A stretch of DNA of 64,000 bases from positions 25,082 through 89,081 of IMG/VR virus record IMGVR_UViG_3300049215_000496, one strand, 5' to 3'. The notes below the pieces were generated by a model that was not told the origin of the DNA, searched no databases, and worked only from the letters and a program-made list of their open reading frames with translations. Positions 3,597 to 64,000 of this stretch are shown here, piece after piece. The position numbers and the translations under genes were made by a program. This stretch comes from a virus. The stretch's first letter is position 1. The number at the start of each line of letters is the position of its first letter.

Positions 3597-6500
3597 GTGG
3601 ATGGTTTCAAACCACCCTTCCGCCTGGCGCCTTTTGGCGTATCGCCGAAATGCACCACAAACACGGGGCAAAATTGCATGTTAGACGGCAGTTACGTCAC
3701 AGGTTACAACGCTGAATCAAACAATCTGATCCAGGGCGAGCTTGTACGAGTCTACGCCGTCGGGGGCCAAAAACGCGTTGTTCGCGCGCAAGCGGATGCC
3801 CCAATCCACCTCCAGGGGCTGATCGGTGTCGTCTTTTCTGGTGTGGTTCGTCCGGGGGGGCCTGTCGCGGTGGCCGCTGTTGCCAGCGCCGCTGTACGCA
3901 TTCTTCTCGATGGAGGACTCGCGCCGCAGCCGAGCAACACACTGTATGTATCGGTGGTGAATCCCGGGCGTGCGACCACGATCCCGTCGGTTGGCACTCC
4001 CGCGATCGCTGTTGTATTCGATGCAACACAGTATTCCCGCGACAACTCGGTCGTCGGTATCCTGACTCAAACCGCGACGGGTTTGGTTGGAGGTCCCGGA
4101 GCGACCGGAGCTACCGGCGCGACAGGCGCGACCGGAGCTACCGGTGCGACAGGTGCAGGTGCAACAGGTGCAACAGGCATAGGCGCGACGGGCGCGACAG
4201 GTGTGACAGGCGCTACCGGATCTCCAGGTGGCGCGACGGGCGCGACAGGAACGCAAGGCGCGACAGGTATTCCGGGCAGCCCCGGCGGAGCTACTGGCGT
4301 GCAAGGCGCGACCGGAGCTACCGGAGCTACCGGAGCTACCGGAGCTACCGGCGCGACGGGCGCAGGCGCAACAGGTGCCACCGGTGTGCAGGGTGCAACA
4401 GGCACTACAGGGTCCGCTGGCGGGGCCACTGGTGCCACTGGTGCAACCGGCGCCACCGGCGTGGGTGCCACTGGTGCAACTGGCGTGGGGGCCACGGGCG
4501 CCACCGGGTTGACAGGCGCAACAGGATCAAACGGAACAGTAGGGCCGCCCGGTGCGGATGGATCTGACGGCACTGACGGGCTCGATGGCATCGACGGCGC
4601 TACCGGCGCGACGGGAGCCACGGGTGTAGGCGCGACGGGTGCCACTGGTGTCCCCGGTAGCCCTGGTGGCGCGACGGGCGCGACAGGAACGCAAGGCGCG
4701 ACAGGTATTCCGGGCAGCCCCGGCGGAGCTACTGGCGTGCAAGGCGCGACCGGAGCTACCGGAGCTACCGGAGCTACCGGAGCTACCGGAGCTACCGGAG
4801 CTACCGGAGCTACGGGACCGATGGGGCCTCCGGGCGCGGATGGATCTGACGGCACTGACGGGCTCGATGGCCCTCCAGGTGCCACGGGCGCTGGCGCAAC
4901 GGGTGCGACAGGCGCAACCGGGGCACTGGGTGCTACCGGCGCGACAGGTGTCGGACCTGGGTTTGGATTTGCGCAACAGAATTGGGTGTCTCTTGTTGAT
5001 GGTGTATCGCCGCTCGTTCCGCACGCGGATCATCAACACACAGCATTTCCATCCCCCGACATGTTTGTCGTTTATGCTGTCGATCAAGACGGAGTAGTTC
5101 TGCCGGGAAACGACACGACAGGACAGCCTGGCACGTCCATTTATCAGGCCACGCCAGCATTGGATATGAGCAACGCATTGGCGTTTGCCGTTGCCACACC
5201 ATACAAGACATTGGAGCAGGTTGGACGCCAACTTCCGCGTGAGGGCAACAACGCAACGCTGGTCGTACTGATTCGTCCGCGTATTGGCGGCGCTACGTAT
5301 AAAAAGATCGATGGTGTGTCCGATCAAGACATGGGGTGGATGAGTCAGCTAACGGGTTGGAAGCGCGTACTGATTCGCGCAACCAACACCTTTCTGAACG
5401 ACACTGCTGACAAGGTAGCGTGCGGATTCCAAACGGTAGCTTCTACATTCGCGGGCGGCTACAACGCACTGGCTGGCAGCACTCCAAGCACACTGAATTG
5501 TCAGAAACAGGGGGGAGCGGCTGCGGGTTTTCCTGCTGAAGCGGGCGGATCGAGCGCGATATCCGGCAAGCGAATTCGATTCACATCAGGCGCACTGATC
5601 AATCAAACAGCTATGATTTGGAAGAATACAACCACACAGTTGGTTCTTTCGAATGCTTTGACTGGAGTTCCGAATCCAGCAGACAACTTTTTAATTGAAG
5701 AGCCCGGACTGCACGTTGGAAACTTTACACACAGTGTGAATCATAACGGAAGTGCCGTCGCACTTGCAGGTTTCGGATCTACGATCGGGTCGGCTACAGT
5801 ATATGGCCCTGGCGGCATCAACTACGCCGGCAGCGAATCCTCTGGTGACATATCTTTCACAGGGCTGTCAACAGCCACACTGACACGATCGTATACAGAC
5901 GAACTTGGAAATGATGTTGTTGTAGGCGTATCGCTGCGCGCAGCAAGCAACGTGAGCGCGTCTCACATCGGTGATTTGACACACGCCTCAGGGTACACGC
6001 ACGTTCGAACCGCAATATCAAACAGCGTGTCACTGAACGTTGGTGCTGGGTGTGTGTACAGGAAAGGTGGATCAATCCAGGCAGGTGCCGGGTCCAGCAA
6101 ATACGGTGGAGCGGGCAATGCCGCGTACATCGCCGGAAGTCAAAATGTCGCCGGAACACAAAAGCTGCGTGTGACACAGGCGCTTATTGCCGATGGATTC
6201 ACCGGGGCTTTCGAGCTTCAGGGCATTTCTGGTTCACTTGTGTACGGCATTGATTTCGCGAATTGCACCGTTCCATTGATCGACTTTAAGTCATCCGGCG
6301 CTGTGTTTGACGTTGACGGCATAACGTCATTAGACGGGGGCAACACTAACACTGTATTGAATCTGACGTCAGGATCTAATCAGACCATAGCTGTTGGCCT
6401 CATAGCGGCGGAAATGACGGCGGCGGCAGCGCTTGGCGATATACGTATGGCTGGGTTGGAGATCGCCCCATTCACGCTATTGATCGATGCTAACTATGTT

Positions 6501-9479
6501 GACACAGTTGGCAACAACGTGTACGGCCAAGGTGGCATAGTTATATGTAACGATGTTGTTCAATCCAATGTTAGTGCAGGAACTATAGCAGCATACAGTG
6601 TATTGCGTGTAACCGGCAACAATCAAGTGGCTCTTGCGCAAGCTCCTGCAAATATAGATGCCTTTGGGGTCGCCCAAATGGCTTCCTCTTCTGGAAATAC
6701 GGTTCTGACTGCCGTGGCTGGTCCTGTGCCGATGTTGTTCAACGCGCCAAACCCCACGCCGGGTAACATCGCGTATCTGTCTACAACTGCTGGGCAAGCA
6801 CAAGACACATTTGTCAATAATTCTGTGCGCCTCGGACGCATTATCGGGCAGCTCAATGGCAGCGTAGGCTTGGTGGCGCTCGACATCGATCTGCAAACAG
6901 TATTTACCCCCGCTCCGGCCTCCGCCATGGTTGCGCTGGTTGACTACGATGCGGTGATCGCCAATGGAACAGGTGGATTCGGTGTCGCCAGTGACGTAAC
7001 CGGGCGCTTCGGATATGCACCTTCCACAGGCGTGCTTACCACAGACATTCAAACAGCGTTGAATTCCGCCATGCTCACGCCATTCAAAACGCTTGAGCAG
7101 GTTGGAAAATCGTTTCCGCGTGGAGCCGGAAACGGATCGAATTTGAGGATTTTCATCCGACCACGGATAGGATCCGCTCCATACCGAAATATAGCTAACA
7201 CCGCAGACCAAAACGGTGTTGACTGGTTGTCCGGCATCAGCGGATGGAATTCCGTGGTTATTCGCGGTTCGCTGAATCTGACCAACACACAAGAAGATGT
7301 TACAACAGCCGGGTACTACCCTACAGCAGGAACGAATCCTGGTGGGTACAATGTAACGGCAAGCACCGTTGGCGGTACAAGTTACACAACATGCCAATTG
7401 AATGGAGGTGGTGCTCCCGGCTTCACAGCTGAATCTGGTGGATGGTCCGTGCTACTAGGTAAACGTATTCGTTGGTCTGCCACTACTACCACGCCTGCGT
7501 TGAGAAACACCACGTCCGTGATCAATGAAGTTCTAACTAATGTAGGACTCGTTCCATCCAACCAAATATTTGTTACGCCGGTTGCATCGGATGTATTCTT
7601 TATTGAATCTCCCGGAGTGGTAGTTGGCAACTTAACACATTTTGCTGGTGTTAACGGTTCAATGTCTTTGACAGGTTTCGGCACAACCACGGCACTGCAA
7701 ACACTGTCAAATGAAGGACCGGCCACATACAACGGAATAACTGTGAGCGGCGTCGGGTTTATGGCCATCACCGGAGCAAATTCAGGATCTATATCCTTGA
7801 ATGCTTTGGACTACAACGGAACGGCTGGAAACGATATAACAATCGGACAAGCTACAAACGTCATTATTCAAAACAGCGCATACAGAAATGTTCGTATGCG
7901 CATAACGAGTCCGGCTACTAGGGTGACGTTTGGATCTGGTTGTGTGATCAGCGGGCCGTTCGAGAATCTTGCCACAATTGACAACCGGATGTTCACGGTC
8001 GGTGGCCAATTTATTCCAACAGCCGCGCCGCTGCGGTACACACAGTTCGTGTACGTGACAGGACAGGCTGCAATGAATTTGTGCGGTGGTGGTGGAAACA
8101 TCGGGGGCGTACGAATTGACAACTGTACGGCAGGCGTATCTTGGGGATTGATAAATTTCCAAGGAATTCCGTTTGCAAATGCGCCTACGGGCGAGCCCTC
8201 AGGTGTGTGGGCCATCGATGGCCTAACAGGCAGCGGAAATACAGGATTTATTTTAAATAGCGGGCACACCGGAACGGCGCGCAATGCGGGATCTGATTTT
8301 ACGGTAGCGTGGGCCGGTCTACAGCCCAACACGATTACAGCGAACCCACCGGTAGGAACGTTGCCTGCTAACAGCGTGTCGTGGGGAAATTGTCAAACAT
8401 CGCTTGCACCCTTGCAACACACTAATGTGTATTTAAGTGGATGCAATTTGACAACCAGTGGCATAGGCACTGTGTTCAAAGATGTAATCAGAACAACAAT
8501 ACATTCCACCGCCGTTGACACCGACATCGCACTGTTCCGCGTTGTAAGAAACGCTCCCGTAAATTCACTGACGTATTACAACGCCAATGCTGTTCCTGCT
8601 TCCGCGGATTTGTTGGTGAATTGCACAGGAATAACTGGTGTTTCAATAAGTGATGGCGGGTATGTTGGACAGGACGTAATAGTAGCCACGGATGGTGTTG
8701 TTCCGATAGAATTCACAGCAATCCCTGCTTACACGGACGTTGGGCAACCAGTATGGTTATCTGCTTTGACTGGAGCTAATGCCGGAAAGGTACAAACAAC
8801 ACCCGGAACAGTACCGGTGATGATCGGGACGTTATACGAGTGCTACGGAACAACGATAGGGCGCGTAAAGTTGAATGCGCTGCAGCCTCAATCGACATTG
8901 ATAGGCGCAACTGGTGTAGCTGGCGCCGCTGGCGCCCCGGGTGCCGCAGGTGCCACGGGTGCAACGGGCGCGGGTGGTGTCGGATCACAAGGCGCCACCG
9001 GCGCAACGGGCACTGCAGGCGCCGCGGGAACGCAGGGCGCAACGGGCGCGACCGGTGTCATGGGTGCAACCGGGGCCAATGGCCCAATCACGCTCGCCAC
9101 GTTCGCGATCGGGTATGAGAGCACTGTTGGTGTGCAGATACTCACAGGAATCACATACGGCCTTCCACCGTACACGATCACCACACCGTTCGGCTTTGCC
9201 ATCCAATGGCGTGTTCCGCAAAACCTGAGCAACATCGAAGTTTGGGTTGAAACAGACAGCATCATCGATTTGGGTGCTGCTGGTTCGTTCACGATTGAGC
9301 TGCTCAAGAACGGTGTCCCTTCCGGAGCCGGGAATGTGATCAACAGCATCGGAGCAACCACGCTGGTTGGTGGACCGATCGCTTACGTCGCAGGCGATCG
9401 GTATGGATTCAATGTCACAGGTGGTGGCACCGTCGGCGTAAGCGTCAGCTTCACACTGTTCGCACGAGGTATTCCGTAA
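3597..9479 (+). CDS. large collagen-like fibre/spike protein (start may be ATG 3678)
   Basis: G-A-T triplet tracts; two internally repeated beta-rich modules (PYKTLEQVG…IRPRIG / PFKTLEQVG…IRPRIG); N-terminus shared with 11129 gene. Confidence 0.85.
4098..4952 (+). repeat. collagen-like G-X-T coding repeats with 9-bp units (ggagctacc) and duplicated blocks
   Basis: Tandem ggagctacc; block starting ggtggcgcgacgggcgcgacaggaacgcaagg at about 4227 and 4665; gcggatggatctgacggcactgacgggctcgatggc present twice. Confidence 0.9.
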
Positions 9480-54876: not shown

Positions 54877-55147
54877 GCTGCAACTGTTCTGCGAGAACGA
54901 CGGTGATCTCTATCGCCAGCAGGTAGTGCCGATCCAGAACAGCCTCAAGCGCAAGATCTCCAAGGGCATTTTCGATCGCGCGAAGGCCGAGAAGCTCTGG
55001 ATGTACCTAGCGGACAACTGCGCCAAGAAGTACGCGAAAGAGTTCGGCTCGCCGGGGCAGCCCTGGCACAAGATGTTCTCGACGTCGGACCGGCGCGCGG
55101 TGGCAAAGTCGTTCAACGACGCCTTCGTGCAAGAATACGGAGGATAG
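54869..55147 (+). CDS. conserved phage hypothetical protein
   Basis: ELQLFCENDGDLYRQ…AKKYAKEF. Confidence 0.65.
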   Translation: MRELQLFCENDGDLYRQQVVPIQNSLKRKISKGIFDRAKAEKLWMYLADNCAKKYAKEFGSPGQPWHKMFSTSDRRAVAKSFNDAFVQEYGG

Positions 55148-55318
55148 ATGGCCAAGCCACCGGTATCACATCGCGACTCAGAACGGGTATGTTGACGGCA
55201 CGTTTTCGAAGCGCGAGGTCAACAAGGTTCTCACAGAGAACGCGCGGGTTCGTGCAGCGGATACGACACTCACGCCGTCAATCGCTGTGGGTTCACCGGA
55301 GTGCTGGGCACGGATACA

Positions 55319-55645
55319 TCACGGCCGGGAAAGTGACGTAGCCGCTCGAACCAGCACGAACCCGTTCTCGCGCCAATCGTACAACGCGTGATCTGGGAAA
55401 TCCCCACTCCCGCGGAATGCCGCTTCGAGTTTCATTACGAAGCGTTGAAGGTCTACTCGAAGCTCGTGCGTAATGTCGCGGTCTTGATCGGACCATCCGT
55501 CGCGCACTGGTAGTAAGTACGGGAAGGTCTGCATCGGGTCGGGGGACAGCGCGCGACGGATGGTTGACCAGTCGGGGGCAGGGTGGGGGAGCCGCAGGAA
55601 CATCTTGGGCTCGGGGGCGTTGACGAGATAGAGGTGGGTTCTCAT
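55319..55645 (-). CDS. hypothetical protein
   Basis: ATGA coupling to the Ala-rich remnant. Confidence 0.55.
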   Translation of the reverse strand: MRTHLYLVNAPEPKMFLRLPHPAPDWSTIRRALSPDPMQTFPYLLPVRDGWSDQDRDITHELRVDLQRFVMKLEAAFRGSGDFPDHALYDWRENGFVLVRAATSLSRP

Positions 55646-55755
55646 TGTTGGACGATTTTGATCAGAGCTTCGCGCATTCGCGTGTAGGGGTTGGCGACGG
55701 TGGGTGTTAGTGCAGCAGCGGCATATGCGTATGCGGCGGCGTTGGCTGCGACAAT
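55642..55755 (-). pseudogene. decapitated third copy of the Ala-rich family
   Basis: Frame reads IVAANAAAYAYAAAALTPTVANPYTRMREALIKIVQQ*, matching the RMREAL C-termini of both paralogs; cut at the 75-bp repeat. Confidence 0.7.
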
Positions 55756-55794
55756 TGACGTCAGGATGGCCAATTGTGCAAGTCATGGAGAGGT

Positions 55795-56010
55795 CTATCG
55801 GGCAGATGGTGCTGTTTCTTTAGCAATATGCAAGTGGAATGATCTGTGCAGCAGATCGCTCCCAGCTACGTTCGATTTGCTTCTTAGCCTGTCGTGCTTC
55901 AGTAGCAGTTTCGTACCGTTTGGCGTACTCTTGATGAGTGCGTCGAATCCAGCACCTGTGTAGAAGTACGAACAGAAGCCGGTGGGCTGTTCGAGCACGT
56001 ACGCCATCAA
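55795..56010 (-). pseudogene. small protein, probably frameshifted near 55930
   Basis: After FYTGAGFDALIK the alternative frame gives EYAKRYETATEARQAKKQIERSW…YC*; the ORF-track tail is borrowed from the repeat. Confidence 0.4.
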
Positions 56011-56207
56011 ATGTGCCCTCGCACCAAGTTCACGGCCCCCCGCTCAATCTTGTGCGCGATCATGTACGCTTGTGTCGGGTACGTCCAGACGCCGACCAGC
56101 ACGAGCGCCAAGCCCACCACCAATACAATCTTCGATGCCATGGCGATCACACGCACAGAAACAGCCGCTAGCACGAGCGCGATTAACCCTACCACCAGCG
56201 TTTCCAT
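56007..56207 (-). CDS. small two-TM membrane protein
   Basis: Hydrophobic; TAATG coupling. Confidence 0.65.
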   Translation of the reverse strand: METLVVGLIALVLAAVSVRVIAMASKIVLVVGLALVLVGVWTYPTQAYMIAHKIERGAVNLVRGHI

Positions 56208-56683
56208 TAGTTCTTCCTCAAGTCTTTGAGGGCGCTCTTCACCAGTATTTCTAATGGCTGTGCGAGATTCATCTTCGCCAACAGCGGCTCGTACTCTTCG
56301 CGGCGGTATCCGAAGTTCTTGAGTGCTACGTGCACGTCCGAAATCTTGAGCCTGGCGCTTGGCGTTAACTGTGCCTGTTGTGCTGCTTGGTTTAGTGCAA
56401 CGTCAAGCTCGTGCGACAATGCAGCCTTTCGCACTTCTCGCTGTTCGTGGCGCCGATTGACAGAGCGCTTGCGTATGGCGACAAGCGCACGTCCTATGGA
56501 GACATCCAGACCCGCCAGGCCCCCAGCGACAGCTCCCAAGACGAAGACAATCAGGCGCATGCCAAATGTGCCAAACAGATACAGTGTGGCACGTGTGAGC
56601 TGTTGCCCAACAAAACCACAATGTGGTGCGTTGTTGATGAAGATCGCGAGAGCAAGGAGGAGCAGGGCTTGGAGTTTTTTCAT
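56207..56683 (-). CDS. membrane protein with C-terminal RuvA domain-III-like module
   Basis: N-terminal TMs; ISDVHVALKNFGYRREE…LEILVKSALKDL. Confidence 0.65.
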   Translation of the reverse strand: MKKLQALLLLALAIFINNAPHCGFVGQQLTRATLYLFGTFGMRLIVFVLGAVAGGLAGLDVSIGRALVAIRKRSVNRRHEQREVRKAALSHELDVALNQAAQQAQLTPSARLKISDVHVALKNFGYRREEYEPLLAKMNLAQPLEILVKSALKDLRKN

Positions 56684-56684
56684 T

Positions 56685-56730
56685 TTGGCGTTTTCCTTTC
56701 TGTGCTGTTTATACAGCATATCCCGTGCCA
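56685..56730 (-). promoter_or_regulatory. sigma54-type promoter + palindrome + shared SD leader (copy 1)
   Basis: TGGCACGGGATATGCT (GG-N10-GC), TGCTGT-ATAA-ACAGCA, AGAAAGGAAAACGCCAA. Confidence 0.75.
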
Positions 56731-56894
56731 GCGCACGCTAACTAAGCGCCTCTGCGCTTCCGCAGCTAAACACATCTGGTGGCAGCGGTCCGACAGGTGG
56801 TGCGGGATTGATCGGCACATCGAGGTTCACCTCCGGATTGGTCAATCGACATACGATCTCGAATCGGGTTGCACGCAAACCCTTTCTGTGCCGT

Positions 56895-57098
56895 TCAGCC
56901 ACTGTGTGGCGTGATCGCCCCACTCAATTGCACTTCTGTCTCAAGTTCAATTCCTAGCGTGCTGCCACATCGTAGGCAGTTTCGTAGAACGTAGTCGCTG
57001 TCGCCCGGGGCTCCCCGCTGGACGCCAATCAACACCGTTTCGGTTCGGAGGCGCGTCAGATCGGCTTTGACGTCAGGATGGCCAATTGTGCAAGTCAT
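56895..57098 (-). CDS. small Zn-binding protein
   Basis: RNCLRCGSTL; start lies inside the 75-bp repeat. Confidence 0.6.
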   Translation of the reverse strand: MTCTIGHPDVKADLTRLRTETVLIGVQRGAPGDSDYVLRNCLRCGSTLGIELETEVQLSGAITPHSG

Positions 57099-57106
57099 GG
57101 AGAGGT

Positions 57107-57660
<554 letters not shown>

Positions 57661-57664
<4 letters not shown>

Positions 57665-57903
57665 CGTCCGACCAGTCTGCGCTCCGCTGCACGTGCGAGG
57701 GCGCGCTCGCGGTAGGCTTTGACCGCTTCTTCATCCGTGTGCGACGGTACTCCGATCAGCATCGTCATAGCACCAGTGCATGTCATGCATGCATCGATTT
57801 TGTACGGCTGCCCGCCGATGCTGAACGTCAGCACGTGCGTTGCGTGTTCGCCACACATGCAATCACCTTGTGTTCCTTTTGCAAGTTCGATAGCGAACCA
57901 CAT
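57661..57903 (-). CDS. small Zn-binding hypothetical protein
   Basis: CMCG…CMTC; coupled. Confidence 0.55.
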
Positions 57904-58004
57904 CACATCCCGAAGAACTTGAAGGCGATGTCGACAATAGAATCGACCGAACAGACGATCAGAACGACAGCGAGCACGGCAGTGAATTTCAGAATTGCAG
58001 TCAT
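57903..58004 (-). CDS. 33-aa hydrophobic peptide with shared leader (not in ORF track)
   Basis: AAAGGAAAACGCC-ATG; MTAILKFTAVLAVVLIVCS…. Confidence 0.55.
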   Translation of the reverse strand: MTAILKFTAVLAVVLIVCSVDSIVDIAFKFFGM

Positions 58005-58594
58005 GGCGTTTTCCTTTCCTTTTTGGCTTCATCGAATGCCCAATTAATTTCAGCTGCTACCGCGTCTGTGCCTCCGACATCCGGGTGGTGCGTGGCCAGT
58101 AGTTTCAAGCGCGCTTGTTCGATCACTTCCCACGGCGCCATTTCTCTGACGCCAAGCACTTGCCACCACGTTCGTGCTTCGGGCATCGCGGGCAGCGCCC
58201 GGTACCCGCCGAACGCTTGCTCGACCGAACCTATTCCCCACCGCAGTTGCCCGCGCATCGCCGACACGTGCTTGCGCAGCGCGACCATGTTGTGCGCGAC
58301 CGTATCCCATTTGTCGCCCGCCAGGACGCGCGGTTCGTTCTTGATTCGAAAGTACACCGCGACACCGTGGTCCGCAGGCTCGCGTGCTTTGGAGTAGGGC
58401 AACCCGTCAAGCCGAACGGGGATGTTCGTCGACAGCACGATCGACGTCGCGTGCAGTAGACGCAGCTCTTGCTCCAGGCCTGATCTCGCTTTGTACAGTG
58501 TGATGTGGCGATCGAATCGGGAGGACTGCGGAGATTTTGTTCGAGGCCACCCGGCAGGCCAAGCCAGGGGGTAGCTCTCGTGGCTTTCAGGCAT
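58001..58594 (-). CDS. phage J-domain (DnaJ-like) protein
   Basis: YPLAWPAGWPRT N-terminus; WWQVLGV…HHPDVGG. Confidence 0.85.
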   Translation of the reverse strand: MPESHESYPLAWPAGWPRTKSPQSSRFDRHITLYKARSGLEQELRLLHATSIVLSTNIPVRLDGLPYSKAREPADHGVAVYFRIKNEPRVLAGDKWDTVAHNMVALRKHVSAMRGQLRWGIGSVEQAFGGYRALPAMPEARTWWQVLGVREMAPWEVIEQARLKLLATHHPDVGGTDAVAAEINWAFDEAKKERKTP

Positions 58595-58905
58595 CACGCC
58601 ACCACCGGAACGCGCTTGATCCGAGCCGCCCACTTGCGGGCGAATGCTGCACGGCGCGCGGGATTGATAAGAGTCCCTGGGTTTGCAGCCACTTGAAGAA
58701 GGAACGGTAGCAACAAGTCTCCGCGGCGCTTCTGTCCCTCACAGAGCGCGAGCAGGTTGTACGCCGTTGAGTCGCGTTCGCGAACACCTGCGTGGGCGTT
58801 CACACACGCGTCAATGGCAGGGCTGCGGTCCTGCATAATCGCTATCCATCGTGGTTGTTGTAGGTGGGCGTGCCAAAAGTTGACGTGCGTCTGTGTGAGC
58901 TTCAT
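58594..58905 (-). CDS. hypothetical protein
   Basis: Preceded by shared leader and promoter copy 2. Confidence 0.65.
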   Translation of the reverse strand: MKLTQTHVNFWHAHLQQPRWIAIMQDRSPAIDACVNAHAGVRERDSTAYNLLALCEGQKRRGDLLLPFLLQVAANPGTLINPARRAAFARKWAARIKRVPVVA

Positions 58906-58907
58906 TG

Positions 58908-58951
58908 GGCGTTTTCCTTTCTGTGCTGTTTATACAGCATCATCCGTGCCG
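58908..58951 (-). promoter_or_regulatory. sigma54-type promoter + palindrome + leader (copy 2)
   Basis: CGGCACGGATGATGCT; 33 bp (58908-58940) identical to 56687-56719. Confidence 0.75.
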
Positions 58952-59061
58952 GGGCAAGATCCGCCCTTTTCACCTCACGTGTGAAGCTTTTGCGTCGCCA
59001 AGCGCGCCACACTGGGCCGGTCCTGCCGGGGCGATCCCGCTCAAAAGCGCGGGAACTTGAC

Positions 59062-59122
59062 TGGCACGCCGAATGCTGTATAACCAGCATGTAACGCCAA
59101 CCTCAAAAAAGGAAAACGCCAA
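59062..59122 (+). promoter_or_regulatory. sigma54-type promoter + palindrome + leader (copy 3, divergent from copy 2)
   Basis: TGGCACGCCGAATGCT; ATGCTG-TATAAC-CAGCAT; AAAGGAAAACGCCAA at 59108-59122. Confidence 0.75.
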
Positions 59123-59123
59123 A

Positions 59124-60269
59124 ATGAACACTGCAATTCTGAAAGCCTTGATGTTCTGTCCATCCCCCGAAGGCGCTTGGGGGCTGCCCGTGCTGTTGTG
59201 GGGTGAGCCTGGTACGGGCAAGACCGCCATGCTGCGCGCCGTCGCAAAAGCGCTGGGGCTGTACTGCTACCGCGTCAGCCCCGCGGAAAAGGGCGAAGGC
59301 TTTTTCGGTGTGGTGCCCGTGCCGGGCGCTGACGGGTGCTTGCACTATCCTCCGCCGATCTGGACACAGCAGATCGCCAATGGCGGGGTGCTGTTCGTTG
59401 ACGAAATTTCGACGGCCGCGCCAGCGCTGCAGGCCCCCCTCCTCGGCCTGGTGCAGCTCCGCACGATCGGTGATCACCAGCTCGGTAATCGCGTGCGCGT
59501 GATCGGTGCTGCCAACGAGACGGCCGATGCCGCGGGCGGGTGGGATCTCGCGCCCGCGCTGTGCAACCGGTTCGGGCACTTCGACTTCGACGGTCTGGAC
59601 GTGAACGATTGGACGGTCGGGTTGCTCGGGGGTTTCTCGACACCGGAATCGCAAGCGCCGGTTGACGCTGTGGCGCTGGAGCAACACGTGATGGCCGCAT
59701 GGCCTGCGGCCGACGCCTACGCTCGCGGGATGGTTGCCGGGTTCATCACGCGCCGTCCGGAGCTGCTCCACAAGCGGCCCGCACGGGGCGGGGATCGTGC
59801 CTGGCCTTCACGTAGAAGCGTCGAATACGCCACAGTCGCGCTCGCGTCGGCCCGCGTGCACGGATTGTCCGAGATGGACACGGACGCGCTGATGTCCGCG
59901 TTCGTGGGCGTGTCGTGGGTGAGCGAGTTCCGTGCTTGGACAGCGTTGCAGGATTTGCCCGATCCTGTTGCGGTGCTGGATGGCACGGTGAAGTTCGCGC
60001 ATGACGAGCGCCGGCTGGACCGCACGATGGCCTTGCTCGGCGCGTGTGCAGCGCTGGTCATTCCGGACAAAGCTGAAAAGCGGCTGGAGCGCGGCGCGGC
60101 GCTGTGGGCGCTGATCGGCACGGTGATTCAGGACGCGGCCGACATCGCGATTCCGCCAGCGCGTGCTCTGTTGTTGTCCGGGCTGGTCGTGCCGAAGGCA
60201 TCGGGGCCGACGTTGGTGAAACTCCTTCCGATTTTGACTGCCGCGGGCATACAAGCAAAGGCCGCGTGA
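59124..60269 (+). CDS. MoxR/dynein-like AAA+ ATPase
   Basis: GEPGTGKT, LFVDEI, AAN, LCNRF, WPSRRS. Confidence 0.88.
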   Translation: MNTAILKALMFCPSPEGAWGLPVLLWGEPGTGKTAMLRAVAKALGLYCYRVSPAEKGEGFFGVVPVPGADGCLHYPPPIWTQQIANGGVLFVDEISTAAPALQAPLLGLVQLRTIGDHQLGNRVRVIGAANETADAAGGWDLAPALCNRFGHFDFDGLDVNDWTVGLLGGFSTPESQAPVDAVALEQHVMAAWPAADAYARGMVAGFITRRPELLHKRPARGGDRAWPSRRSVEYATVALASARVHGLSEMDTDALMSAFVGVSWVSEFRAWTALQDLPDPVAVLDGTVKFAHDERRLDRTMALLGACAALVIPDKAEKRLERGAALWALIGTVIQDAADIAIPPARALLLSGLVVPKASGPTLVKLLPILTAAGIQAKAA

Positions 60270-61654
60270 TGCTATCCCACAAGCAAAAACTGGCTGCTGC
60301 CGTTGCCCGCGTCTCCGATGTCGACGGGTACGCTCCGTACTTCGGCGCGATCCTGCGCGGGTTGATCCGTCGCGAGATGCCCCTCGAAATGCAAGCGGCG
60401 ATGCGCGCCGTGGGTGGTGCTCCTACGATGGCGGTCACGAAGGACGGGATCTTGTTCTGGGCGCCCGAGTTCGTGGAAGAGTCCACCAACGAGGATCTGG
60501 CGATGGCGCTCATGCACCAGACGATGCACGTGATGTTGAAGCTGCGGGATCGCATGACAGCGCTCGGGATCGTGCTGGAGGCTTCGGCAGACGCGCGCTC
60601 GAAAGCGTTCCTCGCAAACATCGCACACGACGCATGCATCAACGAATCGCTTCGTAAGATCCACGCGTGCCCTGTAGAGTGGGTGTATCCCGAGACTTTG
60701 AAGCAGGCGGAGAATCTGATCTTCGAGGAGCGTTACCGCCTCCTATTGCAGCAGCAGCAGCAACAACAACAACAACAACAACAACAGCAGCAGCAGCAAG
60801 CGGGGGGCTCGAAGGGATCCGCCGATGCGGGTGCTTCTAAGGTGGAGGAGGGTTCCAAGCCGGGTGTGGGCAACGGTTGGTGTGGAGGTTGCGCGGAACA
60901 TCCGCTGCCGGGCGAGCCGACGACGGGGGATCAATCACAAGCAGGACGTTCGGACGCCGAGCTGGAACGGTTTCGGCGTGAGACCGCAGGCAGTATCAAA
61001 GAGTACGTGGCAAAGAAGCGTGGCACCGTTCCGGACAGTTTGGTGCGGTGGGCTGACGATCAACTCGCGCCGCCGAAGATCGACTGGCGCCGCAAGCTCG
61101 CGCAGAGTGTACGCGCGGCCGTTGCGTATCGAGCCGGCGCGGTGGATCTGACCTACCGCAAGATCAGCCGACGGCAGGCGGGTGTGGGGTTTGGCTTCGG
61201 GCGCCCGGTGCTGTCGGCCATGCACGCGCCAGTGCCTAACGTGTCCGTGCTTTTGGACTCTTCAGGGTCGATGGGCACGGATGATCTGACCGGGGCATTG
61301 TCAGAGGTGCAGGGCGTTTTGAATGCGGTGGGGGCCTCCGTGACGTTCGTGGTGTGCGACGCGCAGGTGCACGGTGTGGCAGAGGTTGCTACAGCGAAAG
61401 CAGCAGCGGCGATGCTAAAGGGTGGCGGGGGGACAGACATGCGACCCGGTTTCTCGGCGTTGGCCGGACGTAGAACGCGCCCCGATGTGCTTGTGGTGCT
61501 GACTGATGGGCACATCGGCAACGGGTACCCCGCAATCGAGCCCCCGTGGCGCACGGTGTGGGTGGTGCTGGGAGCGCACGGCAACTCAAAACCGTGCCCG
61601 TGGGGTGAAGTTGTGGTTGTGGACGGAGCTACCGCGCCTGTGAAAGGAGCGTAA
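60269..61654 (+). CDS. DUF2201-type metallopeptidase-like + VWA protein with poly-Gln tract
   Basis: HQTMH (degenerate HExxH), DACIN, DSSGSM MIDAS, GGGGTD, LTDG; 17 Gln codons at 60749-60799. Confidence 0.85.
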   Translation: MLSHKQKLAAAVARVSDVDGYAPYFGAILRGLIRREMPLEMQAAMRAVGGAPTMAVTKDGILFWAPEFVEESTNEDLAMALMHQTMHVMLKLRDRMTALGIVLEASADARSKAFLANIAHDACINESLRKIHACPVEWVYPETLKQAENLIFEERYRLLLQQQQQQQQQQQQQQQQQAGGSKGSADAGASKVEEGSKPGVGNGWCGGCAEHPLPGEPTTGDQSQAGRSDAELERFRRETAGSIKEYVAKKRGTVPDSLVRWADDQLAPPKIDWRRKLAQSVRAAVAYRAGAVDLTYRKISRRQAGVGFGFGRPVLSAMHAPVPNVSVLLDSSGSMGTDDLTGALSEVQGVLNAVGASVTFVVCDAQVHGVAEVATAKAAAAMLKGGGGTDMRPGFSALAGRRTRPDVLVVLTDGHIGNGYPAIEPPWRTVWVVLGAHGNSKPCPWGEVVVVDGATAPVKGA

Positions 61655-61657
61655 AAA

Positions 61658-62002
61658 ATGCTTGTCGTGCTTGCCTGGCAGCTGTGGACGGCGTCCGCTG
61701 CAATCAACTTCAACCCGTTTGTCAATTTTCACAAGGAGATACCTTGTCCGCCGCAGCAGGCACATTGGAAAGCGACTGAGTGTGCCGTATCGGATCAGAT
61801 GTGCCTCAATGAGCATGATATGCGTGTGACAGCGCTTGGAATCCTCCTGGGGGACGTCACGCAGTGCTGGAAAGCTGTCACGCCAGCACGGTGTGCCGAT
61901 GAGGTACGATTGATTTCAACTATGCCACCATCGGCACGTACTTTGCTGCTAGACTCTTGGGTGAACGGATACAACAAACCAACAAAGGAAAACGCCAAAT
62001 GA
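61658..62002 (+). CDS. hypothetical, possibly secreted protein
   Basis: SD AAGGAG; hydrophobic N-terminus. Confidence 0.5.
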   Translation: MLVVLAWQLWTASAAINFNPFVNFHKEIPCPPQQAHWKATECAVSDQMCLNEHDMRVTALGILLGDVTQCWKAVTPARCADEVRLISTMPPSARTLLLDSWVNGYNKPTKENAK

Positions 62003-62883
62003 ACACGAACAACGAATTGACCGTAACGCCAGAGTCTGTTGCTACTGCCGGAGCGATCAGCTACTGGAGACTGTCCGGACCTGTGTCGCTGGAGCAGCTG
62101 GCAGCAGCATGGGGGCGTATGAATCTCGACGGTACGTTACTGCCCAAGCCCCCCGCTGACGAAGTGGCATTGGGGCGTGCGGTGCGCGAGCAAGCGTGCA
62201 AACGTCGCCTGGTCCGTCCACTGGCCCGCCGGGGCGCGTGGGCGATCGTGGACGAGACTGTGTCGCAAGACGGTACACTGGACTACGCGGTGATGCTCTC
62301 CGTAACATGGCACCAACACATGGTGCAGTTCGGACGTCCAGCTGTATACACACGGCAAGCGGATGACATCGAAACCGCCATTCGCACCGATTTCGAGCGC
62401 CATCGTGGCGAGTTGGCTCCGGAAGACATCTCAGCTTGGCTGATCAAGCTCGCGGACTCGAACAACGCTGTCACGCTCCGGGACACCGGTGGGATCTACT
62501 TCGTGCCGCGGACGAGCATGCCGTTCTGGCGTTCGGTGGTCGATGCGCTCGAATCCGTGTCGGCGCATCGCGTGTTCAAGATCCCCGCCATGAAGAACTC
62601 CGAGGCGATCGACGCGATCACCGAGGCGGTCACGGCCGAGGCGACGCGCCTGTACGATACGATGATGGCCGAGTTGGAGCGTACGGGTGACGAGCGCTTG
62701 GGAACGCGGGCTCTTGCAACGCGGGCATCCGAGTGCCAGGCGATGCTCGGCAAGGTCCAGTCATATGAGCAGCTCTTGGGTGTACTGATGCCACGTATTG
62801 TCGGGCACATCGAGGAGCTGTCAGCGAGCGTCGCGGCGGCGGCACTGCTGGCGAGCGCAGACGCCACTGAGCGCGCGGCGTAG
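61999..62883 (+). CDS. DUF3150-like helical protein with shared leader
   Basis: AAAGGAAAACGCCAAATG; TLRDTGGIYFVP motif. Confidence 0.7.
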   Translation: MNTNNELTVTPESVATAGAISYWRLSGPVSLEQLAAAWGRMNLDGTLLPKPPADEVALGRAVREQACKRRLVRPLARRGAWAIVDETVSQDGTLDYAVMLSVTWHQHMVQFGRPAVYTRQADDIETAIRTDFERHRGELAPEDISAWLIKLADSNNAVTLRDTGGIYFVPRTSMPFWRSVVDALESVSAHRVFKIPAMKNSEAIDAITEAVTAEATRLYDTMMAELERTGDERLGTRALATRASECQAMLGKVQSYEQLLGVLMPRIVGHIEELSASVAAAALLASADATERAA

Positions 62884-62894
62884 AATCCTTTGGG

Positions 62895-62955
62895 GGCTCC
62901 CGGATCGAGTTTTGGGGGATTGGCGTTTTCCTTTCTCGGTCCGGGAGCCTTTTTT
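62895..62955 (+). terminator. intrinsic terminator hairpin carrying the antisense of the shared leader (candidate sRNA)
   Basis: 15-bp stem 62895-62909/62935-62949 (one G-U), 25-nt loop, T6 tract; TTGGCGTTTTCCTTTCT at 62920-62936. Confidence 0.8.
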
Positions 62956-62975
62956 GTTGAAGGGGAGGCTTGGTT

Positions 62976-63680
62976 ATGAAGTACATGCTGCTGGTACTAC
63001 TGCTGGGATGCGGGGAGGATGTTGTGCATCCGTTCGGGTCGCGCGTGGATCTGCCGATTGCCACGGGTGGGCGGAGCGTGGGGGCGAGCACTGGCGGGTC
63101 GGGTACCGGCGGGGCGAGCACTGGCGGGGCGAGCACCGGCGGGGCGAGCACCGGCGGGGCGAGCACTGGCGGGGCGAGCACCGGCGGGGCGAGCACTGGC
63201 GGGGCGAGCGCGGAAAATTTCGTGACAAACGGCACTTGGACCGGGAGCATGTACGTGCAGCCAATTGGCAATCCGAAGGTGTCTGTGGTGCCCGCAACAA
63301 TTGTCGCTACGAACGCACCCGGTGCGATCCAGTGCGTTCAAGGCACTGTCGTGTGGTATTCGGTGGCACTCTGGGGGTGGACCATCGGTCCTGTGGCAAC
63401 GTCCGGAACAGGACTCGCGATTACTATGTCAGCCGCTGTGCCTGCAGCGGACGTACGCGTGCACATCCAGGACGCTGCGATGAACACGTGGTGCGCGATC
63501 CTGCCCGGAGCCGCAGCTATGATCCCGTGGAGCGCGTTCACCACAACGTGCGGATCGCCCGATCAGGGGGTGCCGTACACTGTCGGAGTGCTGATAACTG
63601 ACGTGCAGATAACGATACGTCCGACATATCGACAGCCGATCCATTTCGATTTCTGCATACAGGACCTTCAGCAGTATTAG
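62976..63680 (+). CDS. myxobacterial-type lipoprotein with GGAST linker repeats and putative carbohydrate-binding domain
   Basis: LLLGC lipobox; 15-bp repeats ggcggggcgagcac(t/c); WCA…IPWSAFTTTC…FDFCI. Confidence 0.75.
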   Translation: MKYMLLVLLLGCGEDVVHPFGSRVDLPIATGGRSVGASTGGSGTGGASTGGASTGGASTGGASTGGASTGGASTGGASAENFVTNGTWTGSMYVQPIGNPKVSVVPATIVATNAPGAIQCVQGTVVWYSVALWGWTIGPVATSGTGLAITMSAAVPAADVRVHIQDAAMNTWCAILPGAAAMIPWSAFTTTCGSPDQGVPYTVGVLITDVQITIRPTYRQPIHFDFCIQDLQQY

Positions 63681-64000
63681 AATGGATTCTCGGCAACGCG
63701 CAGCTTGATGCTTACATCTGAATCAGTGGACAACGTCACGAGTACGGATGCCGGCGTGGTCTGATTCGAGGCTACCTGTCGTCGGACTTCGACATCAGCG
63801 TCTCCCGCAAGCGCCGTGAGAACTGCGTTTGTGGCTGCAGGGTTGGTCCGCTACGTTGCGCCTGACCTGCAAACACGGTTGATCTCGTCGACGGGTTCGA
63901 GGCAGCGGCGCGACGCACCTCGACGCGCGAATCCGCGGCCAACGTTGTGATCGTAGCTGGTGGTGTTGATGGGTTCTCGGCAACGCCTGCACGCACTGTG
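63677..64000 (-). pseudogene. LRV/HEAT-like repeat gene (partial), frameshifted
   Basis: Repeats VRxxVAxNPxTP continue over three frames and end …LRVAENPF* with TAA overlapping the lipoprotein stop. Confidence 0.65.

Follow-up and report, generated by a model that had tools for sequence, protein, structure and literature searches.

The region analysed here, which we call the window, is the 64,000 nt stretch formed by bases 25082–89081 of the 89,081 bp IMG/VR record IMGVR_UViG_3300049215_000496, the genome of an uncultured virus that has direct terminal repeats and is represented by near-identical DNA in moss-metagenome runs. The final 8 kb of the window contain a module in which a 13-base motif, AAAGGAAAACGCC, stands immediately before five genes as a common leader, and in which an operon encoding AAA, VWA and DUF6744 proteins ends in a large-loop terminator hairpin carrying an inverted sixth copy. 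Unless another record is named, coordinates are those of the window, and protein lengths are given in amino acids (aa). The five forward copies and their genes are as follows.

56687–56699, minus strand: leader copy 1, separated by 4 nt from ATG 56683; gene for a 158-aa membrane-anchored protein (56207–56683); longest match to the hairpin loop (17 nt)
58005–58017, minus strand: leader copy 2, abutting ATG 58004 of a gene for a 33-aa hydrophobic peptide (57903–58004); no promoter-like box upstream
58908–58920, minus strand: leader copy 3, separated by 2 nt from ATG 58905; gene for a 103-aa protein (58594–58905)
59108–59120, plus strand: leader copy 4, separated by 3 nt from ATG 59124; AAA ATPase gene (59124–60269)
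61984–61996, plus strand: leader copy 5, separated by 2 nt from ATG 61999; DUF6744 gene (61999–62883)

The window contains exactly six copies of the motif where 0.07 were expected, a number reached by none of 100 shuffles, and no copies with one mismatch were found in it. A preliminary description of this DNA, made from its letters alone, had suggested a search of the whole genome, and the complete 89,081 bp yielded the same six copies and no additional ones, all of them inside 6.3 kb. With up to three mismatches allowed there were 25 matches against 15.8 expected, namely the six exact copies and 19 with two or three mismatches, which is the level expected by chance. Each of the five forward copies sits 0–4 nt 5′ of an ATG, at the position of a ribosome-binding site (RBS), so that the starts named in the preliminary description, 56683(−), 58004(−), 58905(−), 59124(+) and 61999(+), all hold; its DUF3150 label for an operon gene does not, as Pfam assigns the product of the 61999 gene to DUF6744 (PF20529). 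An invariant AAACGCC follows the AAGGA core in the copies.

The sixth copy (62922–62934, minus strand) is not followed by a start codon, the next 40 nt of the minus strand containing no ATG, GTG or TTG. It lies past the DUF6744 stop (62883) and ahead of a plus-strand gene at 62976, within the hairpin that ends the AAA/VWA/DUF6744 operon.

62892–62955, plus strand: terminator hairpin and T6; 5′ arm to 62909, loop 62910–62934, 3′ arm from 62935
62920–62936, plus strand: anti-leader segment TTGGCGTTTTCCTTTCT, comprising the 3′ part of the loop and the initial 2 nt of the 3′ arm
62921–62924, plus strand: predicted apical tetraloop TGGC
62976–63680, plus strand: lipoprotein-like gene downstream of the hairpin

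The hairpin (62892–62952) folds with −40.3 kcal/mol (z −4.76), a value equalled by none of 200 shuffles. Its stem has 18 bp, of which 15 are Watson–Crick or G–U pairs and three are G–U pairs to the U-tract, and T6 comes next; a routine terminator scan detected only an inner fragment of it. The 25 nt loop holds a weak inner helix of seven pairs, four of them G–U, and freeing the loop segment from this helix costs approximately 7.8 kcal/mol. Since the downstream gene has the same orientation, transcription through the hairpin yields the anti-leader strand, and the plus-strand RNA would carry UUGGCGUUUUCCUUUCU. This segment is complementary to all five leaders, with 17 contiguous pairs at 56683, 15 plus one G–U at 58004, and 15 each at 58905, 59124 and 61999. 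The placing of the sixth copy in the loop and 3′ arm of a terminator, the weak G–U-rich pairing of that segment, and a complementarity that spans 17 nt at the 56683 leader and 15 nt at each of the remaining four had all been given in the preliminary description, and the fold, the T6 and our recomputed pairs agree with it apart from the one extra G–U at 58004. As a separate observation, AATCCTTTG just 5′ of the hairpin can pair with the Shine–Dalgarno (SD) region GAAGGGGAGG of the lipoprotein-like gene (131 nt fold, window 62884–62975), a possible cis structure coupling termination to downstream translation.

We propose, with moderate confidence, that the 3′ end of the operon acts as an anti-leader RNA by base-pairing with members of the leader class across their spacer, SD and start region. 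Transcripts of the AAA/VWA/DUF6744 operon would end in the large-loop hairpin and there display the complement of the five-gene leader, this 3′-terminal RNA being active either within the mRNA or after release as a stable product of decay or processing. Pairing would start between the exposed UGGC tip and the GCCA of the spacer, and would then extend over the SD to the start codon; the U/C-U-G-G tip presumably conforms to YUNR, the U-turn motif found in loops of antisense RNAs. By pairing with leaders that are not being translated, such an RNA would occlude ribosome binding, and the predicted outcome is a dose-dependent negative feedback or shut-off of the leader class, the operon itself included, in proportion to operon output. 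The pairing at the RNA level, the action in trans and the repressive effect are the parts of this proposal that we infer from the sequences, and antisense control is the best supported of the explanations we considered, but is unproven.

The DUF6744 protein has many relatives on 85–130 kb contigs, the closest (P0002–P0009) with 55–67% identity. Loci encoding such relatives were collected by profile-guided scans, which gave 29 from IMG/VR, 23 from metagenomes and three further ones; a profile-guided scan of the genome collection and a single-protein search of IMG/VR returned no DUF6744 relatives, and an exact 15-mer scan of IMG/VR produced single chance matches only. In a blind test covering 40 loci, each DUF6744 leader was matched against the 450 nt that follow the gene in its own locus and against the corresponding interval of the other loci. 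This set omitted L142, where the locus ends at the gene, L148–L151, L163, L164 and L167–L174, which are weak or partial matches or lie on contigs that are too short, and the duplicates L152, L175–L182 and L185. A run complementary to the locus's own leader was present at four of the 40, with scores of 13–16 against control means of 6.0–6.5 and control maxima of 8.0–9.5 (z 7.6–11.9), and these four, the window, L123, L124 and L153, are exactly the loci among the 40 that have a GGA..ACGCC leader. The next best candidate, an 11 nt complementary run at L130 (z 3.2), was judged to be chance, since it is not part of any hairpin loop and repeated leaders are lacking in L130. The three relatives are as follows.

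L123: 94.5 kb complete record; DUF6744 identity 56%; 4 leaders; hairpin after one 68-aa open reading frame (ORF) that follows DUF6744
L124: 102.9 kb; DUF6744 identity 46%; 6 leaders; hairpin directly after DUF6744
L153: 24 kb contig; DUF6744 identity 43%; 8 leaders; hairpin directly after DUF6744

Each of them has a single inverted copy, placed in the 3′ portion of the loop of a long hairpin located downstream of DUF6744, and in the two complete genomes among them (G001 and G002) the leader copies are restricted to the same module. The preliminary description had made its proposal depend on relatives retaining the antisense loop and on the loop co-varying with the leaders; all three relatives that share this leader type retain one after DUF6744, and in all four genomes the loop tracks that genome's own leader variant. 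Thus AAAA precedes CGCC in the leaders of the window and TTTT stands in its loop, the leaders of L123 and most of those of L124 carry AAAAA with TTTTT in the loops, and L153 has ACACGCC in eight of eight leaders and GGCGTGT in its loop. The leader variants found within L123, L124 and L153 are mostly A-to-G changes opposite a loop U, so that pairing survives as G–U, and the L124 loop, GGCGUUUUUCUUUC, forms 14 contiguous pairs with each of six leaders that occur in three sequence variants. When duplex energy and opening costs were combined in the manner of RNAup, the loop-only interaction with 19 leaders came to between −8.4 and −21.7 kcal/mol.

The surroundings of the loop core have changed far more than the core itself. 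We counted pairs after anchoring the four hairpins by hand at the loop-closing pair, and found that all 44 cells of the innermost 11 stem positions pair, with two or three pair types at eight of the 11 positions, although the 5′ arms are identical at merely 3–6 of 11 positions between genomes; the stems have thus diverged via compensatory changes. In their 5′ halves the loops show no relationship (2–4 of 8 positions identical), whereas the core A[TC]TGGCGT[TG]TT.C is conserved, and in all four predicted folds UGGC forms the apical tetraloop. Loops of 16–25 nt with a core conserved in four of four genomes do not match the 3–8 nt unconstrained loop of an ordinary terminator.

These observations bear on the possibility that the sixth copy is the remnant of a lost minus-strand gene start, or a minus-strand loop that titrates a leader-binding factor or ribosomes. 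The copies of the window and L123 do run on as ...GCCAATC, like a leader with a decayed ATG, and L153 retains an ATG and a 62-aa ORF. However, the copy has been kept at DUF6744 identities of 43–56% although stems and 5′ loop halves diverged, and it follows later leader changes. In addition, the flanking genes are on the plus strand on both sides of the hairpin in all four genomes, a T-run follows on that strand (T4–T5, 4–14 nt past the stem, in L123, L124 and L153), and no leftward promoter-like box is found there. A relic or decoy is accordingly very improbable in our judgement. A translated minus-strand ORF behind the sixth copy, named in the preliminary description as an observation that would count against its proposal, is absent from three of the four genomes; L153 has the unconserved 62-aa ORF, which is rich in Pro, Arg and Gly and overlaps DUF6744 antisense, and which we rejected as a gene because its ATG is absent from the other three.

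Four of the five leaders stand 20–50 nt 3′ of a −24/−12-type box, GGCAC-N5-[AT]TGCT, which occurs seven times in the genome against 1.26 in shuffles; the 58004 leader has no such box. The palindrome TGCTGTATAA[AC]CAGCA, of 16 bp, overlaps three of the boxes and thereby accompanies three of the five leaders.

56703–56729, minus strand: box 56715–56729 and palindrome TGCTGTATAAACAGCA 56703–56718, upstream of leader 1
58924–58950, minus strand: box 58936–58950 and palindrome 58924–58939 (as at leader 1), upstream of leader 3
59063–59089, plus strand: box 59063–59077 and palindrome TGCTGTATAACCAGCA 59074–59089, upstream of leader 4
61933–61947, plus strand: −24/−12-type box without palindrome, inside ORF 61658–62002 and 37 nt before leader 5

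The same layout of promoter, operator-like palindrome and standard leader is present in L153 and L123. If the usual −12 spacing applies, as we assume it does, the 5′ ends of the 56683 and 58905 mRNAs would lie approximately 10 nt upstream of the motif, in which case the anti-leader would cover most of the 5′ untranslated region (UTR). Two of the leader genes had been described as internal to operons; in view of the box at 61933–61947, this is not simply so for 61999. Further boxes were noted at 3599(−), 3748(+) and 4354(+) in L153 and at 6741(−) in L123. Sigma-54-type boxes are unusual in a virus and would imply the need for a host or viral enhancer-binding ATPase; the AAA protein beside the leaders has a weak Sigma54_activat match (31 bits). 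Two promoter–palindrome–leader cassettes are identical over approximately 45 nt, and Logan contigs from the moss-metagenome runs break precisely at 56690–56716 and 58911–58937, an assembly-graph effect of the repeat.

The separate box of the 61999 gene is relevant to an explanation that dispenses with action in trans, namely that the 3′ loop pairs only with the leader or leaders of the same transcript, for example on an approximately 1 kb mRNA starting from box 61933. Such 5′–3′ closure of the mRNA would auto-limit translation of DUF6744 (and AAA) or stabilize the message, and would leave the three minus-strand genes unaffected. Besides the box, it would account for the hairpin always following DUF6744 and for the presence of the leader on DUF6744 and AAA, both in four of four genomes, and a sister-group locus, L126, has a leader shared by just those two genes. 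It leaves unexplained why the minus-strand genes keep the identical 13-mer, copy 1 even having the longest match (17 nt), and why the sister group has the two-gene leader but no antisense copy, and we regard pairing in cis alone as rather unlikely.

The distance between boxes and leaders can also be taken to mean that the 13-mer is a duplex DNA site for a sequence-specific protein, either a roadblock repressor or a regulator of the −24/−12 promoters, and that the hairpin is incidental. Confinement of the exact copies to one module fits this too, and identity among them would also be selected at the DNA level. Yet the motif tracks the start codon (0–4 nt) and bears the SD even at 58004, where there is no box, and in each of the four genomes, as in mycobacteriophage Anaya (see below), the inverted copy occupies a hairpin loop, a context that a duplex site does not need. 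Moreover, the L124 loop copy is short of one internal G, which shifts the register of a DNA site, yet is absorbed in RNA by a G–U pair. To us this makes a protein-binding DNA site quite improbable. The alternatives to antisense control are therefore weakened to different degrees by the loop context in every genome, the wobble-absorbed indel, the same-strand flanks and the fidelity of the minus-strand leaders.

The preliminary description had named no phage regulon built on a standardized SD 'barcode' with an antisense terminator as known. That phages have no comparable barcode does not hold, given that the start-associated sequences (SAS/ESAS) of Cluster K mycobacteriophages are standardized RBS motifs: in passages of Pope et al. 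(PMC3203893) they are described as a 13 bp asymmetric motif 3–7 bp before a mostly ATG start, restricted to the non-structural arm, conserved beyond the SD and in half of the cases accompanied by an upstream inverted-repeat element. Cluster EF Microbacterium phages likewise have a SAS-like standardized RBS motif (PMC7302621). According to the same passages of Pope et al. from 2011 (PMC3203893), each K1 genome has one reverse SAS, logged without explanation, and the authors were undecided between 'RNA or protein' as the binder of SAS, which leaves room for a DNA site as well; the role of SAS is still called unknown in PMC11373665 and PMC12699233.

In Anaya (JF704106) we found 16 forward SAS-like sites and one reverse, the latter between gp96 and gp97 (record positions 59849–59899), where it forms a 10 nt loop, CCUCCUAUCC, on the sense strand of a 161 nt hairpin (−78.5 kcal/mol, z −3.99). 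A conserved version of the region is present in 150 Cluster K records, and in some annotations an ORF is drawn over it. This loop location is not among the passages of Pope et al. available to us (PMC3203893), and we found no paper in which an anti-leader role is given to either a reverse SAS or a terminator loop, subscription journals and supplements lying outside the search.

The leaders of the window resemble SAS in being near-identical copies of an asymmetric motif of approximately 13 bp at the RBS position a few nucleotides before ATG, in their confinement to one non-structural part of the genome (here 6.3 of 89 kb), and in having one reverse copy away from any gene start, in Anaya likewise in a hairpin loop; like ESAS, a subset of them (here three of five) is preceded by a promoter box and an inverted repeat. 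They differ in virus, host and motif sequence, which are unrelated, and in number, with five copies here against 11–19 in Cluster K. The promoters are of the −24/−12 type here and SigA-like there (PMC11373665), and the reverse copy of the window is part of a U-tract terminator that ends an operon and co-varies with the leaders. A blastn search of 56000–63700 against 50,697 phage records gave no matches, and as the sequences are also unrelated, we conclude that the element works like SAS plus anti-SAS without being a member by descent.

Among characterized mechanisms, those nearest to the proposed one are the c4 RNA of P1/P7 and small RNAs (sRNAs) that share a terminator with an mRNA. The c4 RNA is reportedly encoded upstream of its targets and excised by processing. 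Passages of a review (PMC12197685) present it as a phage antisense RNA against a ribosome-binding region, transcribed from the same unit as its targets, with the complementary segments displayed in loops and with specificities that differ among related phages, all of which is paralleled here. Unlike the class of five leaders, c4 controls one gene (ant), and an Rfam search at E≤1 over 55000–64000 gave no relevant family and no c4-type RNA homology. DicF appears in the same review as a base-pairing sRNA that shares a terminator and 3′ end (PMC12197685). As with 3′-UTR-derived sRNAs of bacteria and prophages, the putative regulator of the window shares the intrinsic terminator of an mRNA (here an 18 bp stem and T6) and has a seed complementary to the initiation regions of several mRNAs, which here co-varies in relatives. 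The seed of those sRNAs is usually in a single-stranded 5′ part, in contrast with its position inside the terminator loop here, and their targets are short, individually evolved sites rather than one standardized tag. In IS10, the RNA-OUT loop pairs with the 5′ end of RNA-IN. The C-rich anti-SD sRNAs such as RsaE (PMC6158497) similarly use a loop to pair with SD or start regions, one RNA having many targets in the case of RsaE. Whereas RsaE and RNA-OUT address a generic G-rich SD, the best conserved and most exposed part of the loop described here, UGGCG, matches the non-SD spacer ACGCCA, so that host mRNAs would be kept out.

Several results weigh against antisense control of the leader class. 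The co-variation comes down to approximately two events, an A:T indel and a change of A to C, and the four genomes fit a single clade with one change (Shimodaira–Hasegawa-like approximate likelihood-ratio test, SH-aLRT, 77, in a quick tree, the careful search being unfinished), which makes them one lineage and not four independent origins. Raw duplex energies fail to separate own-genome from cross-genome pairs, with shuffled leaders attaining −26.9 where the observed range was −23.0 to −30.5; furthermore, a helix of 15–17 bp is impossible in a closed 25 nt loop without strain or opening of the stem. Standard leaders occur without an antisense copy in the 11–21 kb analysed for L133, L158, L149 and L128, and the sister group L125, L126 and L154 has no such copy either, indicating that the antisense partner is not obligatory. 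These other leaders are CTCCCAAGGAG, five times in L133 (5689–11180), GGAAAGGAATC, four times in L158 (582–6922), and, in the sister group, AGGGAGATAG on AAA and DUF6744 (L126 6836 and 9971). Among nine Cluster K phages sampled, moreover, the anti-SAS loop is kept in five; it is absent from Yuna, Keshu and SirPhilip, and Ekdilam retains 17 consensus SAS with a degenerate loop that shows no co-variation. An antisense partner is hence dispensable for standardized leaders, and the parallel between the two systems is real but not universal. As a further observation on L133, a small hairpin precedes each of its standard leaders.

The element would join two known kinds, standardized leaders and antisense control of the RBS, and would provide a useful, testable link to the SAS puzzle. 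If the loop and leaders do pair, the virus would possess a compact post-transcriptional switch, a single terminator hairpin made in proportion to operon output, and would address a gene set via a private tag in the RBS spacer and not via the generic SD. It is also conceivable, and we put this forward only tentatively, as something we would not yet expect to be true, that tags at start codons together with one anti-tag displayed in a loop are a general device to which phages have converged for switching a gene set by one RNA, in use both in this uncultured family of 89–103 kb viruses and in Cluster K1. The reverse SAS logged in 2011 would then regulate the SAS genes, with the non-SD spacer serving as an address that excludes host mRNAs. 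For the SAS of mycobacteriophages this offers a concrete hypothesis that can be tested in genetically tractable phages of Mycobacterium smegmatis. For annotation it advises caution, as large-loop terminators of phages can hold regulatory sequence.

No tRNA genes were found when they were looked for in the window. The neighbourhood of the module also contains coding repeats. The VWA/DUF2201 protein has a poly-Q run of 17 residues (60750–60805, plus strand), and the lipoprotein-like gene contains (GASTG)n repeats (63090–63210, plus strand). In addition, a minus-strand ORF includes a long GCC/GGC run (57160–57330), where metagenome contigs vary in length and sequence.

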